Sequence record: OZ556245.1
Direction: 5' to 3' (one strand)
DNA: 64,000 nucleotides
DNA from: a phage
Shown here: piece after piece, positions 4,653 to 64,000 of the stretch
Layout: the number at the start of each line of letters is the position of its first letter
Numbering within the stretch: the first letter of the stretch is position 1
The notes under the pieces: generated by a model
Database searches by the model: none
The model's input: only the letters and a program-made list of their open reading frames with translations
What the model was told of the DNA's origin: nothing
Made by a program: the position numbers and the translations under genes

Positions 4653-5977
4653 TTGATTTCCTCTAAATCTTTGGTGTATTCTGTAACTACATCAGTAGTT
4701 TTCCAATATTCGTTTTCTTCTTTTTTAGCTTTAGCTTCTTCAGCAAGTTTCTTTGCTTCGTCGGAAGTCATATGAAAAATATTCATTCCAACTAGTTTAT
4801 CAACATAAGAAGAATACATATCAATTTTAGAAAGTTCTTCGGTCAGTTCTTTGCGAGTTTTACCTTGTACAACAATTTCACCTGAAATTACTTTCTTAAT
4901 GAAATGTGCCTTGGCAAAGGCTAAACGAAATGCTGATTCAGTTTCTTTGATTTTGTTATCAATTCGTTTTTGGACATAAGTTTTACGAACTTCAACGAAG
5001 TCTTTGATTAAATCAACTACGTTATCGTAAACTTGTAGTTTTCCTTTCTCATTAATAACGGTAATATTCTGGGAACGACGCTCAATCAACCCGAAGTCTT
5101 TCATAATTTTTGCATGGCGTTCTTCTTCGTTATCGCTTAAGGAATATTCTTTACGGAATTTAACTTTGAAGCCAAAACCATGCTCACCGCAAGCATCATC
5201 CCACGTAATGAAACCTTTATCTTCAAGCGGGTCTAAGATTTTACTCACATAAGTTTCACGATCATACTTATACGGAATCTCAGTGATATGCATTTGAGTT
5301 CGCGAAGTAAACTTGTACGTTCCACGAATTTCATATTGACCGTCAATTTCAACGACTTCACCACGAAATTCTGGGAATTCTACCTTAGGTTTAGTTACTT
5401 TCTTTCCTTGAAGAGCTTGCAATACAGCTTTCTTGACAGAAGAAACACTATGAGGAAGAATGTAAGTTGCATAACCAGTTGCAATACCGGAAACACCATT
5501 AAGAAGAACAGTAGGAATAATAGGCAAATAGAAAGCAGGCGGAATGTGTTCTTTATCTTGATGTACCGGAGCATATTCAGTATCTTTATATACGTTATAG
5601 AAATTTTTACTTACACGAGCAAAAATATAACGACTTGCCGCTGCTTTTTGAACGGTACGAGAACCAAAGTTTCCTTGACCATCTAACAGAGGAAAGTTAT
5701 TATTCCAAGTATTAGCCATCAAAGCACCTGCGTCTTGTGCAGAGTTTTCACCATGATGATATCCAAGGTCTGCTACACCACCTGCAATAGAAGCGAGTTT
5801 GTGAAACTTATCTTTATTTCCTCGTGCCAAATCAAGAGCTCGAGCAATAACAAATCGTTGAACTGGCTTAAATCCATCAATCATATTTGGGATAGCACGA
5901 TTTTCAACCGTGTACATAGCATAAGCCAATGCTTCGTTATCAATGATACTTTTTAAATCGCGATTATTCAGTTGCAT
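4649..5977 (-). CDS. 52: DNA topoisomerase II medium subunit gp52 (GyrA-like)
   Basis: 442 aa, T4 gp52 length; ATG verified; synteny. Confidence 0.9.
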   Translation of the reverse strand: MQLNNRDLKSIIDNEALAYAMYTVENRAIPNMIDGFKPVQRFVIARALDLARGNKDKFHKLASIAGGVADLGYHHGENSAQDAGALMANTWNNNFPLLDGQGNFGSRTVQKAAASRYIFARVSKNFYNVYKDTEYAPVHQDKEHIPPAFYLPIIPTVLLNGVSGIATGYATYILPHSVSSVKKAVLQALQGKKVTKPKVEFPEFRGEVVEIDGQYEIRGTYKFTSRTQMHITEIPYKYDRETYVSKILDPLEDKGFITWDDACGEHGFGFKVKFRKEYSLSDNEEERHAKIMKDFGLIERRSQNITVINEKGKLQVYDNVVDLIKDFVEVRKTYVQKRIDNKIKETESAFRLAFAKAHFIKKVISGEIVVQGKTRKELTEELSKIDMYSSYVDKLVGMNIFHMTSDEAKKLAEEAKAKKEENEYWKTTDVVTEYTKDLEEIK

Positions 5978-5981
5978 AAAT

Positions 5982-6122
5982 TTACCATACTAGTGAATGT
6001 AGTGCCATAATAACATCAGAAATGAAAAGCACGACTTGAATTAATCCGAACATTACTCCATAATATAGTGCTACCAATAAAGTAGCAAGGGCTAATGAAT
6101 AGCCCAAGATTTTCTTAATCAT
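5982..6122 (-). CDS. Small hydrophobic membrane peptide
   Basis: 46 codons [33 protein letters not shown]...; below ORF-track cutoff, translated by hand. Confidence 0.35.
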   Translation of the reverse strand: MIKKILGYSLALATLLVALYYGVMFGLIQVVLFISDVIMALHSLVW

Positions 6123-6273
6123 TAGTAGATAACAACACAAATGTTAAATATGCACACATACCCTGAGATAAAGCTTGTGAAAACACGCTGTTAGCATCGG
6201 TGCAGATAGTTAAAACACATGCTACTATCCAACAAATCATTGAAATAATTCCAATAATTTTCGTAATATTCAT
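6115..6273 (-). CDS. Small hydrophobic membrane peptide (ac-like position)
   Basis: 52 codons [26 protein letters not shown]...; preceded by RBS GAGGAG; same region as T4 ac (51 aa). Confidence 0.4.
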
Positions 6274-6370
6274 AATATTCTCCTCGATTGTTTTTAAAAC
6301 CTAAAACACCGAAATTTTTAAGATTGTTACGATAGAACTGCATCACATGTTCGTTATGGAAATTACTCAT
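6191..6370 (-). CDS. stp: Stp-like peptide, C-terminally extended
   Basis: Hand translation [18 protein letters not shown]... matches the first 18 residues of T4 Stp as I recall it, but continues to 59 codons; start overlaps ndd stop (TAATG). Confidence 0.5.
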
Positions 6371-56441: not shown

Positions 56442-56471
56442 ATTATACCACATCCTTGTGGCAAAGTAAAC
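56442..56471 (-). promoter_or_regulatory. T4-type early promoter overlapping the upstream stop codon
   Basis: Near-identical to the promoter at 12542-12571 (attataccacatccttgtggNaaagtaaact). Confidence 0.55.
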
Positions 56472-57493
56472 TAGTTTAGTGCATTTAGTGCATTGTTCAG
56501 TTTAGAACGTTGCTTCGTAAGATTTTTGACTTTTTCTTGAGCTTTTTCTAGCATCTTTTCAGCTTCTAACACTTCATTAGTTGCTTTAACGAGTTCATCA
56601 TCTACTGCCTTGATAGACTTCTCAATCGCATCCGCATGCCATTTTTCAACAGGTTTAAGACTCGGATTTTCAACAGGAAGAAAATTCACTTTATTGAATT
56701 TCCATGCATCTTTATTACTTGAACTATACATCCAAAATTTAGGATCGTTTGATGAGTAATTGGATAAATTTAAGTTATCTTGCACTTCCTGCTTTTTCTC
56801 TTGTGGGACTTCGTCCTTTCTCAAAAAATCGTATTTAAATGAAACGATCATATCAAGTTCATACGTTGTTGTATGTTCCCAATTTCGCTCAAAATGAGGT
56901 AAAATCTTAGACTGAACAGCGGCAACAACATCCATATACTTAAATGCTTCTGTCAACTGTGATTTAAGGCATTCGCAAATTGAAAGAGAATTTTTTGTAT
57001 TAGGTTTAAAGCTAATTCGCGCAGTTCTGTTATTTTCTTTTAATGGTCTTACTTCCATCTGAAGAGTATAATCATCAAATTTCAGATTCTTTAAGTTAAT
57101 ATCAGAACCTTTTAATCGACTCGCAATTGATAAAATTTGTTTTAATTGTTTACGGAATAGAGCAATAAATCTCCATTCAATACGATAATGATTTGGATTG
57201 AAAAATCCAGATGATAAATCGACCTTACTTTGACCAACGCCTTGAACAAATAGAGGATTTTTATAATCAATAGTTTTACAGAAATCGGTGAGCTGCTCAC
57301 GAGCAGTCATTTGTGTAATATATCCTGCTTGGTTAAAATTGCGCACCCATTCACTGCTGTTCAGATGTTTAAAGGCATGAATGGAACAATTAACTTTACC
57401 AAGGTCTAAATTATTTTCACACAAAAACGTCATAGCATCACGAGTATAGCTGGCATTACGAACCATATCTTCAATTTGAGAACGAGTTTTCAT
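56471..57493 (-). CDS. Coiled-coil paralog family member 3
   Basis: 340 aa; block YRIEWRFIALFRKQLKQILSIASRL; C-terminal coiled coil. Confidence 0.45.
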   Translation of the reverse strand: MKTRSQIEDMVRNASYTRDAMTFLCENNLDLGKVNCSIHAFKHLNSSEWVRNFNQAGYITQMTAREQLTDFCKTIDYKNPLFVQGVGQSKVDLSSGFFNPNHYRIEWRFIALFRKQLKQILSIASRLKGSDINLKNLKFDDYTLQMEVRPLKENNRTARISFKPNTKNSLSICECLKSQLTEAFKYMDVVAAVQSKILPHFERNWEHTTTYELDMIVSFKYDFLRKDEVPQEKKQEVQDNLNLSNYSSNDPKFWMYSSSNKDAWKFNKVNFLPVENPSLKPVEKWHADAIEKSIKAVDDELVKATNEVLEAEKMLEKAQEKVKNLTKQRSKLNNALNALN

Positions 57494-59450: not shown

Positions 59451-59765
59451 CTAAAAGAAACTTCTTTCACATTTTTTTCCACTGAACCATGCACTTACCG
59501 CTTTCTTGGTCTCAGGAGCAGTGTTATCCATAAACCATTCAAAGGCAGCCTTTTTATGATTCTGGAGGGCTTCTCGGGCTTTAATCTGCTCACGGTCTAT
59601 TAACACTAACATATGAGCCTTTCTTGTCACCATGGGCTTCTTATGATTTTTTGAATACTCCCAGTCATTTGTCCATCGCATTGTCGTTGCGAACTGAAAT
59701 ACTGCTTCTTTAATTTTAGTTTCGTAAATTTCACGAGCCTTTGAGTATAACATCACTACCTCCAT
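59451..59765 (-). CDS. Hypothetical protein
   Basis: 104-aa ORF. Confidence 0.35.
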   Translation of the reverse strand: MEVVMLYSKAREIYETKIKEAVFQFATTMRWTNDWEYSKNHKKPMVTRKAHMLVLIDREQIKAREALQNHKKAAFEWFMDNTAPETKKAVSAWFSGKKCERSFF

Positions 59766-59854
59766 TCACCAGTTTAATTCTAGTCATCTTTTTAATGGCA
59801 GTCCATATAATCTATTTCTGAACTGCCTTTTTGTCATAGAAGTCCTCTTATGAA

Positions 59855-60823
59855 TTATTTCAGAAGAGTAACCTCAGCAATTTCTTCCCAACCGTTTTTG
59901 TCGGTCATAATAAAGTCAGCAAGATAAAGAGCAGTACGCAGTGAAACATTGCGTAAACGATTAACATTAACTTTCATCCATGATAATGCTTTATAAGTTT
60001 CTTCATCAGAAAGACCGCGCTTTTGCATCATGTCAGTTGAAAGAATAACATCTTCAACCCTGACCATAATTTCTTCATTAGTGTGAACACCCAAATCTAA
60101 ATAAACCGAGCGGGACACTAATGCTTGTAAATGTGGAGCAAGTTTAGTACCACGGTCTAATTCGCGGTCAATGTCAACGTTTGTGATAAAAACAATCGTT
60201 CCTTTAAATTCAAACTCACGCTCAATGCCTTTTTCTTCTAAGTAAGAAGACGCAGTGCTCCAGCAGACTTTACGGGTCTCTCCAGTGTCCAGAGCGGCTT
60301 TTAGAAGATTAAGAATATCCATATCAGAGAAAACATCCACATCATCAATCAAAAGGACAGAATTCTCTTCACGATTATTCCAAAGCTGCTCATAAAGACC
60401 AATACCAGAGATTTTACCATTAATGCTTTTATATTCAATGTATCCAATATCATTTGCTTTATTCAAAGCTTTATCTAAAGAATACGTTTTACCAATACCT
60501 GCTGCGCCAGAGATAATTAATGAACGAATATTTCCATTAATAATACCATTCGTCATCATTCCCATAACATTAAATCTTTTATTAATGCGGGTTTTCATAT
60601 CTTCATATGATTCTTTAACTTCTTCAACTTTTACACCATCATATGAAATATCTGATTTGTAAACCCAAACACCGCGACGCTTACCGTCAATTTCAACAAA
60701 AACTTTACCATCTCCTTGTGCATCTACCGGAGCATTATCTGGGAACCATTCGCCTAAGAGCTCAAAAGTTCCAGAGATTTCTTTACCGAAGTAGATACCC
60801 TTATTGATAGTTACAGTTTTCAT
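59855..60823 (-). CDS. P-loop NTPase (AAA-like ATPase)
   Basis: ORF-track start is GTG; ATG at 60823 with RBS GGAGAA; Walker A ISGAAGIGKTYS, Walker B VLLIDDVD. Confidence 0.5.
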   Translation of the reverse strand: MKTVTINKGIYFGKEISGTFELLGEWFPDNAPVDAQGDGKVFVEIDGKRRGVWVYKSDISYDGVKVEEVKESYEDMKTRINKRFNVMGMMTNGIINGNIRSLIISGAAGIGKTYSLDKALNKANDIGYIEYKSINGKISGIGLYEQLWNNREENSVLLIDDVDVFSDMDILNLLKAALDTGETRKVCWSTASSYLEEKGIEREFEFKGTIVFITNVDIDRELDRGTKLAPHLQALVSRSVYLDLGVHTNEEIMVRVEDVILSTDMMQKRGLSDEETYKALSWMKVNVNRLRNVSLRTALYLADFIMTDKNGWEEIAEVTLLK

Positions 60824-60859
60824 TTTATTCTCCAATTTCACATTTGTTTTGATAGGGTA

Positions 60860-60889
60860 ATAGTATCACACTACTACCCTACTGTAAAC
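60860..60889 (-). promoter_or_regulatory. T4-type early promoter
   Basis: Minus strand GTTTACA - spacer - TACTAT. Confidence 0.5.
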
Positions 60890-60892
60890 AAT

Positions 60893-61156
60893 TTATTTTA
60901 ATGTTTGCCAAATTTTTACTGCTTCGCGACGAGATACTTCTACAGCTCCAAGTTCTACGGCTTTTTGGCGTCGGCGAGCATGTAAGTCATAATGTTTAAT
61001 GCGTTTATCTTGAAACCAAGAACGTTTCATTCCTATTGCTTCTGCCATTTTATGAAGCTCTTCAATATCTCCATCAGTGAACATATGACAATTTTTAGTT
61101 GGATGACCGCGAAGTTTCCATCCATGATTCATTAAAACATCTACGTAAACTGTCAT
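60893..61156 (-). CDS. Hypothetical protein (nrdC.11-like)
   Basis: 87-aa ORF. Confidence 0.4.
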   Translation of the reverse strand: MTVYVDVLMNHGWKLRGHPTKNCHMFTDGDIEELHKMAEAIGMKRSWFQDKRIKHYDLHARRRQKAVELGAVEVSRREAVKIWQTLK

Positions 61157-61302
61157 TGATTCTGCTCCAAATATGTTTCTATAATTTTCTGAGCGAGATA
61201 AACTGCGTTATCTTCAGTTGCATCTTCTAAGAAATTTTCAAAATAAACTGAAATTTCTTCTGTGTCAATCAACTTTTTTACTTCAATTAACGTAGTTTTC
61301 AT
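61153..61302 (-). CDS. Small acidic protein
   Basis: 49 codons MKTTLIEVKKLIDTEEISVYFENFLEDATEDNAVYLAQK..., coupled ATGA to the next gene. Confidence 0.35.
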   Translation of the reverse strand: MKTTLIEVKKLIDTEEISVYFENFLEDATEDNAVYLAQKIIETYLEQNQ

Positions 61303-61336
61303 TTTATTCCCCAAATCCGTATCAGTTGATAGTTGT

Positions 61337-61366
61337 ATAGTACCATAAAGCTTTATGCTTGTAAAC
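61337..61366 (-). promoter_or_regulatory. T4-type early promoter inside the 76-bp repeat
   Basis: Identical to 4418-4447. Confidence 0.55.
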
Positions 61367-61390
61367 CGTTTTGTGAAAAAATTTTGAAAT

Positions 61391-61414
61391 AAAAAAGGGA
61401 GCCCGAAGGCTCCC
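61391..61414 (-). terminator. Rho-independent terminator after the NTase-like gene
   Basis: gggagcc-cgaa-ggctccc followed by U6 on the minus strand. Confidence 0.6.
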
Positions 61415-61416
61415 TA

Positions 61417-62430
61417 TCATTTATAATAACTTCGATGGTTTTCAAGATAAACCCTCTCAAGGAAGTCATCCCAAAAACACATGTCTACTTTTTGCTGCAT
61501 ACCGTTCTTAGAAGCTTCAATGGATGCTGCTTCTACTTGATCGACCACATCTTCCAAAAACTCTTGAACAGTTTTAAATGGATGTTTACCCAACTTCACG
61601 TCGAGAATAAATGGAGCGTCTTGAAGTGGATAGACTAAGTCACCAGTTTTGTAAATTTCCAATAGTTGGAGTCCACCACGGCAAGCATGACTCAGAGCTT
61701 TCCAGTCAATGCCCTCATTAGCTTCGGCCTTACGAGCGCGTTCGCCGTATTCAGCATCAAGTTTATTCAAAGATTGCTTAAGCTCGATAAGAGAAAGCGT
61801 TGTTTGATATTTACGACCCAACACGGTGTAGAACGTTTGTGGGCCTGTTTTCTCATGATTATGGAATACCCATTCACAGAATTCGTTCTCTGGAAGACGA
61901 TGCTTAATATCTTCAACTTTAGTTCGACGCTGCTTAATGGAACCGTCTTCTTGGTAATCAACCCATTGCTCAGGGATTTGATTAACTACTTTCAATACAT
62001 CACGTAATGCGGCCAAACGAGAACCCTTAACACCGTATTTAGAAGCTTGCTTGCGAACATATCCTAAATAGGATTTCATGTTAGTCGTATAAAAACGAGA
62101 ACGATTGTCTTGAATAAACTTCCATACATCAGGCAAATCAGATTTAACCACTAGTTCCGGTGGAGTGTGGAGCATATCCAATGCTACAGTTTCACCATCT
62201 GCAGCTAATTTAAAGAAATACTTAAGACTATATAGTTCATGGTCAATATCATCTTTAGTGTTTTTAGATGATGTGTTGTTAGTGTTTTTACTCATATGCT
62301 CTTTAACATTTCCGATAAGAATATCGCGAGCAGGAGGAACAAAGATTTCTTTAAAATCTACATCAGATTCTGGAGTAGAAGTTCCATAAAGATGACTACC
62401 AAAATAGCTTTTCATTACTGTTTTCATCAT
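61417..62430 (-). CDS. Putative Pol-beta-superfamily nucleotidyltransferase-like protein
   Basis: 337 aa; N-terminal YFGSHLYGTSTPESDVDF matches the G[SG]-x9-D-x-D NTase signature; coupled ATGA to the upstream membrane-protein gene. Confidence 0.4.
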   Translation of the reverse strand: MMKTVMKSYFGSHLYGTSTPESDVDFKEIFVPPARDILIGNVKEHMSKNTNNTSSKNTKDDIDHELYSLKYFFKLAADGETVALDMLHTPPELVVKSDLPDVWKFIQDNRSRFYTTNMKSYLGYVRKQASKYGVKGSRLAALRDVLKVVNQIPEQWVDYQEDGSIKQRRTKVEDIKHRLPENEFCEWVFHNHEKTGPQTFYTVLGRKYQTTLSLIELKQSLNKLDAEYGERARKAEANEGIDWKALSHACRGGLQLLEIYKTGDLVYPLQDAPFILDVKLGKHPFKTVQEFLEDVVDQVEAASIEASKNGMQQKVDMCFWDDFLERVYLENHRSYYK

Positions 62431-62912
62431 TCAGCCTTATATTCAATAACAGGACATACTTTAGCTTTACGCGCTTTTAAAAATTCGACGATAATAGATT
62501 TCTTGGGTTGAATAGGCTCAAGTCCATTTTTGATTCGTTCTTCGTTTTGTACAATGAGCTCAATTTCTTTATTGAGCTTTCGGTCGTTATATTTGTCTAA
62601 CAACCAGGAAGGACCAATTACCGCCCCGACAGCAATAAGAACCATGACCGATAATGCTAAAATGCCTATACCAATTGAAGCCGGAACTAATGTCCATAGG
62701 CTACTAAAGACAAAGAATTTAATTAAAATTTCTTGGCCAATTATTGCGGTACCCGCTAAAGTTGCAAATCCAACAATTGAAACAGCTAATACCGGGAGAA
62801 ACGTTTTCCAAAAATAAGCACATAACGTTTTTGGACGATTCCATGTGCTGTTAAATGCCGAGTAAATTTTATAGTGCCAAGAGTTTTCATTAATAACCAT
62901 AATTATAATCAT
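62427..62912 (-). CDS. Multi-pass membrane protein
   Basis: 161 aa with hydrophobic helices (FLPVLAVSIVGFATLAGTAIIG; IGILALSVMVLIAVGAVIG). Confidence 0.45.
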   Translation of the reverse strand: MIIIMVINENSWHYKIYSAFNSTWNRPKTLCAYFWKTFLPVLAVSIVGFATLAGTAIIGQEILIKFFVFSSLWTLVPASIGIGILALSVMVLIAVGAVIGPSWLLDKYNDRKLNKEIELIVQNEERIKNGLEPIQPKKSIIVEFLKARKAKVCPVIEYKAE

Positions 62913-63430
62913 CCTTTCATTGAAGGTGTAACAGTTGTTAAATACTTAATCATAGCTTCAGCTTCTGATTTTGATAATGAAATTTCTCCATTGTTTTGAC
63001 GAATAGAAATAAAATCCGGATGACGGTCACCACCAGCTTTTAAAACACACATATAAGTATCAGTTTCATCTTCAATATCTGAAATGATTGAAGCAGTTCC
63101 ACATGAATGTGGTTTTTGATAAATCAATGCAGCTTTTCTTCCACCGTTTGACTGTTCATAAACTTTTAACACATCAAACAAATCACTTCTTTTGTCAATA
63201 GCTAAGATGTTGTTTTCATCTTCAATGTTAAATCCTTCGGATACTTCATAAAGTGTCACCCATAAATCACCTATATCAATAACAGCGTTCACTTTTCCAT
63301 GACTTTCAAGAGCATGACAAATTTTCTTGATTTCATCATAACTCATTTTAATAATATCATCTCCTTGAATAAGAAAGATGTCATTTTTAAATTCAACACG
63401 AATTAAACCGCTTTCACTTGAAATAAACAT
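62909..63430 (-). CDS. Hypothetical protein, paralog of the 63437-64000 ORF
   Basis: 173 aa; C-terminus SKSEAEAMIKYLTTVTPSM resembles TKDEAIALKTYLDSVIPTM of the upstream ORF. Confidence 0.4.
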   Translation of the reverse strand: MFISSESGLIRVEFKNDIFLIQGDDIIKMSYDEIKKICHALESHGKVNAVIDIGDLWVTLYEVSEGFNIEDENNILAIDKRSDLFDVLKVYEQSNGGRKAALIYQKPHSCGTASIISDIEDETDTYMCVLKAGGDRHPDFISIRQNNGEISLSKSEAEAMIKYLTTVTPSMKG

Positions 63431-63436
63431 ATTTCC

Positions 63437-64000
63437 TCACTTTGAAATCATAGTTGGAATGACAGAATCGAGATAAGTCTTTAGCGCAATAGCTTCGTCT
63501 TTGGTAAATGTGACAATATGTGAACGAAAATCATCAATTTGACGAATAGTTAAGACATCTCCATCTTCATAGCATTTTGACACATTTAAAACAGTTTCAT
63601 CATTTTGATCGCACTGATCGCAAGCGTTAGTAATAATAGCATTGCAATTTTTGAGCCATTTTAAACTATGTTTTCTTTCATTAGAATAATAAAAATATTT
63701 AATCTTATCTATAAAACTATCCCAATGGATAACTGATAAACACATTGACTCACTTTTAATATTAAATCCTGGACATGAAGAATAAAAATGAATTTTGTGC
63801 TCATCATTGATGCTTACTATTTTATCAGTATAAGGATATTCAATTTGGGTTAAATGAATGATTTCGCTAGGAGTAAAATATAGCATATCATCTTCTTGTG
63901 TCAAGCGATACATGTTATTTACTTTTTCTATAGCCAATTCACCAAAAAGCGGACTAACTTCTAATACTAATCGTTTCATATTAATCCTTTTTACTGACAT
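63437..64000 (-). CDS. Hypothetical protein (ATG at window edge; may extend upstream)
   Basis: 187-aa ORF whose ATG is the last three bases of the window. Confidence 0.35.
   Translation of the reverse strand: MSVKRINMKRLVLEVSPLFGELAIEKVNNMYRLTQEDDMLYFTPSEIIHLTQIEYPYTDKIVSINDEHKIHFYSSCPGFNIKSESMCLSVIHWDSFIDKIKYFYYSNERKHSLKWLKNCNAIITNACDQCDQNDETVLNVSKCYEDGDVLTIRQIDDFRSHIVTFTKDEAIALKTYLDSVIPTMISK

Follow-up and report, generated by a model that had tools for sequence, protein, structure and literature searches.

What does a nucleotidyltransferase (NTase) encoded beside a small membrane protein do for a phage? The question is raised by the end of a 64,000-nucleotide stretch of phage DNA (sequence record OZ556245.1; the whole stretch is called the window below), where four tightly packed minus-strand open reading frames (ORFs) occupy positions 61,417 to 64,000. 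An initial annotation, made from the letters alone, described them as a translationally coupled early operon and suggested that the NTase and the membrane protein form a pair in nucleotide signalling or modification. That interpretation is partly supported by our results. The window belongs to a Tequatrovirus (726 phage records match it, the best at 99.6% identity), and the four genes are best explained as the end of an early transcription unit of T4 type, situated in the phage's variable nrdC-tk region. We propose, with a probability of roughly 0.6, that the final gene product, an orthologue of T4 NrdC.11, is an RlaP-family RNA-repair enzyme that adds nucleotides to damaged RNA ends in tRNA repair and counter-defence. 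The cluster itself is already-catalogued T4-family biology and is not new.

The nucleotidyltransferase is an RlaP-family protein

The last gene of the cluster (61417..62430, minus strand) encodes a product of 337 amino acids (aa), or 336 aa from the ATG at 62427, that is 98% identical to T4 NrdC.11 (NP_049709). It scores 43.7 bits to the Pfam family RlaP (PF10127), which has a cutoff of 23 (E = 3.4e-11, residues 7-135), the only other Pfam match at E <= 0.1 being a sub-threshold NTP_transf_2; it also matches phrog_388, labelled 'nucleotidyltransferase', at 1.5e-136, and a divergent phage homologue (locus L032) scores 62.9 bits to PF10127. NCBIfam returned no match for the NTase or for the membrane protein. 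The first gene of the cluster likewise has a T4 orthologue, MobD.1 (84% identity), so that two of the four ORFs, none of which could initially be assigned to a T4 function, are direct orthologues of T4 genes. Both NrdC.11 and MobD.1 are experimentally uncharacterised in T4, and close homology to characterised T4 proteins of unrelated function, which had been named as evidence that would speak against the initial interpretation, was thus not what we found.

The GS...DxD motif that first suggested an NTase proved to be strongly conserved. G10, S11 and D22-x-D24 are invariant in 61 homologues (34-54% identity; numbering of the 336-aa form), as is D62, which we identify as the third catalytic acidic residue; the corresponding minus-strand codons lie at 62364-62362 (D22), 62358-62356 (D24) and 62244-62242 (D62). 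The AlphaFold2 (AF2) model is a confident one (predicted local distance difference test, pLDDT, 93.9; predicted template modelling score, pTM, 0.81). Its N-terminal part is an alpha/beta NTase domain and its C-terminal part a helical domain, with a beta-rich insertion at residues 154-208; the catalytic residues fall at strand 1/helix 1, on strand 2 and on the strand at 61-67. We conclude that the protein has a real Pol-beta NTase fold. Many GenBank and UniRef records call NrdC.11 homologues 'thioredoxin', and one reads 'HNH homing endonuclease'; these names are evidently errors spread from the gene name nrdC.11 or from adjoining genes, and the practical value of the locus is that it corrects the annotation of an NTase called 'thioredoxin'.

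The same motif had initially been taken to fit Pol-beta-fold NTases, among them CD-NTases and 2-5A synthetase (OAS)-like proteins. We found no Pfam, PADLOC or PDB-sequence link to the CD-NTases or OAS-like enzymes and therefore rejected that reading: PADLOC recognised none of the four proteins, nor the neighbouring ATPase, a search of PDB chain sequences with either the single NTase or the 61-sequence profile returned nothing meaningful, and no cGAS, OAS or CD-NTase was present among the top fold matches of the NTase. Judged by these searches, signalling of the CD-NTase, OAS-like or Hailong-like kind is not supported.

RlaP enzymes act on RNA. Two Pseudomonas members, PfRlaP and PaRlaP, have been reported to add one or two nucleoside monophosphates (NMPs) to RNA 3'-OH ends, preferring cleaved-tRNA mimics and Mn2+ and showing no action on DNA or protein, and partly to rescue the aminoacylation of a tRNA lacking one anticodon-loop nucleotide; the same December 2025 preprint counts T4 NrdC.11 among the RlaP members, in cluster 5 of the sequence similarity network (SSN) built there (PMC12776372). 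Furthermore, a 2021 survey predicted that phage RlaP restores nucleotides before ligation (PMC7824862). We examined the genomic context of 80 bacterial and archaeal loci with full-length NrdC.11-like proteins (32-54% identical to NrdC.11) by clustering their neighbours within 5 kb. RNA-repair neighbours were found in 13 of these loci, namely the Pnkp ligase PF16542 (6), RtcB, PF01139 (5), and TROVE/Ro60 (4), which are the commonest conserved neighbours of the cellular genes; in several cases, L108, L120, L126 and L063 among them, the repair gene stands directly upstream of, and on the same strand as, the NTase gene. At four of 78 viral loci (L190, L200, L208 and L209) RtcB, a P-loop kinase or a PNKP-type phosphatase is encoded near the NTase. 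This kind of context defines the RlaP family, and it favours RNA repair over signalling for the NrdC.11-like subfamily.

The substrate might nevertheless be something other than RNA: an NTase of this fold could nucleotidylylate small molecules, proteins or the ends of DNA in the service of host takeover or anti-defence, as aminoglycoside and lincosamide NTases, MNT-type AMPylases and terminal transferases would suggest. Its fold matches do include KNTase/ANT(4'), LinB, DrrA, GlnE and MNT/HEPN-type proteins, its C-terminal half lies outside the RlaP Pfam model, and the predicted beta-rich insertion is an extra element. We consider this alternative unlikely, since RlaP is the sole family matched at the sequence level, the characterised RlaP enzymes left E. 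coli protein and DNA unlabelled (PMC12776372), and full-length homologues have RNA ligases and Ro, and no resistance or toxin genes, as their recurrent neighbours.

Several observations weigh against an RNA-repair function for NrdC.11. PF10127 covers the N-terminal NTase half only, the C-terminal, substrate-binding half being divergent; among solved structures the best match is to HalB, an NTase that synthesises DNA; and NrdC.11 falls in an SSN cluster apart from the two assayed enzymes (PMC12776372). In addition, among the cellular loci RNA-repair neighbours are confined to 13 of 80, no RNA ligase or Pnk gene adjoins nrdC.11 in the window or in T4, and T4 mutants without nrdC.11-mobD.3 are viable (PMC9825161). 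Such viability fits an accessory role and gives no phenotype.

With these points weighed, RNA 3' ends are the most likely substrate, and tRNA repair against host nucleases the most likely role in vivo. D22, D24 and D62 would act with a pair of metal ions, which in the characterised relatives are Mn2+, to transfer one or two untemplated NMPs onto the 3'-OH of a broken RNA, which would restore nucleotides excised by 'smart' anticodon nucleases such as RloC; the phage Pnk and RNA ligase could then reseal the tRNA. The NrdC.11 step would be one of counter-defence RNA repair, not of signalling. T4 is the system in which RNA repair was first discovered, and the locus offers a natural handle for asking if phages put back the nucleotides that RloC-type anticodon nucleases take out.

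The membrane protein and its genomic partners

Immediately upstream of the NTase gene lies that of a small conserved membrane protein of 161 aa (62427..62912, minus strand), which is absent from T4 and matches phrog_944 'membrane protein' at 7e-51, with no match in Pfam. Its hydropathy profile bears out the multi-pass topology first proposed: residues 37-105 are hydrophobic, with room for two to three transmembrane (TM) helices, and both termini are basic. Homologues are present in 1319 phage records; a word-indexed homologue search gave close relatives only. Across 28 clusters the family keeps an N-terminal NSWHY...LCxYFW motif and a basic C-terminal YLKAxKxKxCP motif. The residues W8, C27, Y29, F30, W31, K142, K145, K147, C149 and P150, two cysteines among them, are invariant.

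Does the NTase need this protein? Window positions 62432-63411, which hold the membrane gene and a paralog of mobD.1 described below, have no counterpart in T4, where positions 56450-57257 (L001) carry the HNH homing endonuclease gene mobD. The cassette swap is clean, its breakpoints falling at the stop of mobD.1 and the start of nrdC.11, and tblastn with the membrane protein and the 173-aa paralog found no extra copies in T4 40-62 kb or in the whole window. Because mobD replaces both genes in T4, which keeps its 98%-identical NTase, the NTase is independent of the membrane protein, and we rejected the idea that it requires a membrane partner. The functional pairing that had been proposed is therefore not obligatory. 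In T4-like phages the membrane gene always lies upstream of the NTase gene on the same strand (39 of the 78 viral NTase loci). As a rule a y05I-type gene, full-length or short, precedes it, and 0 to about 5 genes stand between it and the NTase gene; Pfam assigned no family to ten such intervening genes from other T4-like phages. The remaining 39 viral loci have no membrane gene within 6 kb, and the membrane protein is encoded at none of the 80 cellular loci.

Gene order alone would allow a Hailong-like pair, in which the membrane protein is gated or regulated by an oligonucleotide (oligo-dA, for example) or some other nucleotide signal made by the NTase. Such a pair would serve superinfection exclusion; alternatively, the NTase would be an anti-Hailong decoy. 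A TM-protein gene followed by an NTase gene with a stop/start overlap mirrors HalA-HalB (PMC13434031), and the membrane gene has an upstream, same-strand position at half of the viral loci. We regard this as very improbable. The 61-sequence profile found no similarity to HalB among PDB sequences at E <= 10; PADLOC gave no match for either protein (Hailong models in the release used were not confirmed); and the channel-plus-crown HalA is a far larger protein than the one of 161 aa (PMC13434031). Obligate pairing of the NTase with a membrane effector, a feature of Hailong, is absent from T4, from the 80 cellular loci and from 39 of the 78 viral loci, in other T4-like phages 0 to 5 genes lie between the two, and Pakpunavirus, ICP1, Kuravirus and others have the membrane family but no NTase beside it. 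Signalling and Hailong-like readings are further weakened because the membrane partner is dispensable.

Outside the T4-like phages, the membrane family has other neighbours. In Pakpunavirus the membrane gene adjoins genes for an Rnl1-type ligase and a P-loop kinase; elsewhere it adjoins a PNKP-type HAD phosphatase (L031), a DRB0094-family RNA ligase (L036) or an AAA_33 kinase (L052), and at L190 it stands beside a kinase and the NTase. In further lineages the neighbours were uninformative or unrelated to RNA repair, and a Pfam search of those in ICP1, Kuravirus, L015/L023, L034 and L032 was uninformative. For about 20 independent lineages with a chance of a few percent each, finding five linked to repair would have a probability of the order of 1e-3, a rough post-hoc estimate. 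The association between the membrane family and RNA-repair enzymes is suggestive, not decisive.

Three arrangements of these genes illustrate their variety. At L004 3001-4764 (Pseudomonas phage PJNP029) an HTH_37 protein, the membrane homologue, an Rnl1-type RNA ligase and a P-loop kinase, followed by phosphoribosyl pyrophosphate (PRPP) synthetase and NAMPT, form what by gene content is a putative compact RNA-repair cassette; the same type is found at L029, L030 and L035. At L190 2304-6311 (IMG/VR contig 3300022221_000194) the membrane homologue shares one locus with a P-loop kinase (4913-5332) and an RlaP NTase (5319-6311), the last two overlapping. Finally, in a 159.8-kb phage (IMG/VR 651703001; L032 / L187) two membrane-protein paralogs flank a longer RlaP NTase of 372 aa.

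To what extent the four genes belong together can be judged from the same evidence. They may be functionally unrelated passengers of a hyperplastic early region, packed at ordinary T4 gene density, with the membrane protein acting alone, for example in exclusion or lysis timing; we give this only slightly less than an even chance. Throughout this region stop/start overlaps are usual, both in T4 and in UGKSEcP2 (L002), the near-identical phage; the mobD swap cleanly removes two of the four genes, and in the Aeromonas phages IMGVR_UViG_2974605215 and 2595698668 the membrane gene (L016/L017) lies tens of kb from the NTase gene (L191/L192). However, the membrane family adjoins four types of RNA-repair enzyme in at least five lineages, and in many T4-like lineages a y05I-type gene is the one directly upstream of the membrane gene.

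A more tentative proposal, against which we would put the odds, is that the Cys-motif protein of phrog_944, often encoded after a y05I/PUR-like gene, is a part of phage RNA-repair modules that has so far gone unrecognised. It might serve as a membrane anchor, regulator or sensor and work with the end-healing or sealing enzyme of the phage in question, whichever that is: RlaP in T4-like phages, Rnl1 and a kinase in Pakpunavirus, and elsewhere a DRB0094 ligase, a PNKP phosphatase or a P-loop kinase. One possible purpose would be to bring repair to the sites where tRNA-cleaving toxins enter or act. For the cluster in the window, any role of the membrane protein or of the PUR-like proteins is one that we infer; the membrane protein would be an accessory partner, with the NTase functioning without it. 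If the proposal is true, the family adds a membrane component to an RNA-repair pathway thought to be purely cytosolic. Its link to RNA repair is the sole part of the cluster that may be new, and a membrane family recurring beside varied RNA-repair enzymes in unrelated phages is a more useful lead than the cluster itself.

The MobD.1-type proteins, gene junctions and transcription signals

The first two genes of the cluster are the mobD.1 orthologue (63437..63979, minus strand; 180 aa; y05I family, with predicted PUR/Whirly-like repeats) and its diverged tandem paralog (62909..63430, minus strand; 173 aa; absent from T4, with a predicted PUR/Whirly-like N-terminal domain). That they are paralogs, as had been noticed at the outset, is confirmed by 27% identity (E = 3e-10) and by matches of both above threshold to PF24449 and PF24448, the y05I domains T4_y05I_N and T4_y05I_C: 134.2 bits (2.7e-39) and 83.3 bits (1.6e-23) for the 187-aa form of the first ORF, 116.5 and 82.9 bits for the 173-aa ORF. 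The AF2 model of the paralog is good for the N-terminal domain only (pLDDT 79-91) and of low confidence in its C-terminal part, because the word-indexed search gave close relatives only and the alignment was shallow. In this model a beta-beta-beta-beta-alpha unit is predicted to occur three times, as in Pur-alpha, and because of this repeated unit the MobD.1-type proteins are probably binders of single-stranded nucleic acid, which agrees with the Pfam label 'putative transcription factor' for the y05I family. One 179-aa protein (P0351) is an apparent recombinant of the tandem paralogs, with an N-terminal half of the MobD.1 type and a C-terminal half of the 173-aa type.

All four ORFs were confirmed where they had first been drawn, with one correction. 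The first gene exists, but its in-frame ATG at 64000, giving 187 aa, is an artefact of the window edge. The real start is almost certainly at 63979, giving 180 aa, because the Pfam domain begins at residue 11 and the ORF contains the stop of the upstream gene; it is also where the gene is annotated to begin in the 99.6%-identical phage. Read from the sequence, the junctions bear out the operon-like packing. The TAA of the upstream gene (63983-63981) precedes the ATG at 63979 by one base (TAA-T-ATG); between the mobD.1 stop TGA (63439-63437) and the ATG of the 173-aa gene at 63430 stands GAGGAAAT; this gene overlaps the 161-aa gene as ATGA (62912-62909); and the 161-aa gene overlaps the NTase gene as ATGATG (62430-62425). 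In the 99.6%-identical phage the membrane gene is annotated from the ATG at 62900, giving 157 aa.

The intrinsic terminator that had been seen at the 3' end of the cluster was also recovered. It closes the transcription unit at 61390..61415 (minus strand) and consists of an 8-bp G+C stem, AGGGAGCC/GGCTCCCT, a TTCG loop and a T6 run; the fold has -17.3 kcal/mol (z = -4.0), none of 200 shuffles folded equally well, and a terminator scan placed the hairpin at L002 7616-7597, equal to window 61415-61396. Upstream, the unit extends past the window edge. In UGKSEcP2, T4 early-type promoters of the form TTTAC(A/T)-N17-TAnnnT lie 0.6 and 1.4 kb further upstream and are the sole minus-strand promoter matches between the two flanking intrinsic terminators, where consensus scans of L002 found no MotA box or late TATAAATA motif. 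The designation 'early operon', with a timing deduced from promoter consensus matches, is plausible. A near-consensus sigma-70-like site, TTGACA-N16-TATATT with an extended TG (63877..63904, minus strand; L002 10105-10078), lies inside mobD.1 and, as a consensus match, is a possible internal promoter candidate; in T4 the promoter that drives mobD is reported to lie within the 3' portion of the gene upstream of it. Rfam gave no RNA family in 59500-64000.

Beyond the terminator, a T4 early-type promoter-like site, TTTACA-N17-TACTAT (61337..61365, minus strand), found by consensus scans, starts the next unit and marks the 3' boundary of the cluster. This unit, placed between nrdC.11 and nrdC.10 with what appears to be its own early-type promoter, encodes a 53-aa ORF (61153-61314) and an 87-aa DUF4031 protein (60893-61156), and its two genes (window 60836-61293) are absent from T4. 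The nrdC.10 orthologue (328 aa, 59855-60841) has weak matches to P-loop AAA/STAND NTPases, all below Pfam thresholds, and a strong match to phrog_1250, a family with no assigned function.

Comparison with known systems

Hailong (HalB/HalA, PDB 9dbh) differs from the cluster in several ways. There is no detectable sequence relationship; the membrane partner is dispensable, of unrelated size and missing altogether beside the cellular NTase homologues; and HalB makes protein-primed poly-dA, whereas nothing points to poly-dA for NrdC.11. The likeness suggested between the MobD.1-type proteins and PUR (Pur-alpha) or Whirly proteins would be one of modelled fold, without sequence similarity.

The NTase is related to RlaP and to T4 NrdC.11 itself through near identity to the latter, a score above the PF10127 gathering threshold and the complete GS...DxD...D set. 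The linkage of homologues to RNA ligases adds to this resemblance. In the model an N-terminal NTase domain is joined to a C-terminal helical domain, a layout that may correspond to the PfRlaP crystal structure, in which a terminal helix packs back on the NTase domain. Unlike the Pseudomonas enzymes, the protein belongs to another similarity cluster, aligns through its N-terminal half alone and has no adjoining ligase gene in the phage.

The T4 pathway of Rnl1 and the polynucleotide kinase-phosphatase PseT, which counters PrrC, provides the functional comparison. In T4-like phages pseT and rnlA map away from nrdC.11, and no genetic link of nrdC.11 to PrrC or RloC has been reported. Nevertheless, the role proposed here for NrdC.11 would be an extra end-processing step in that pathway, and in other phages the membrane-protein family adjoins genes for the same kinds of enzyme, an Rnl1-type ligase and a P-loop kinase.

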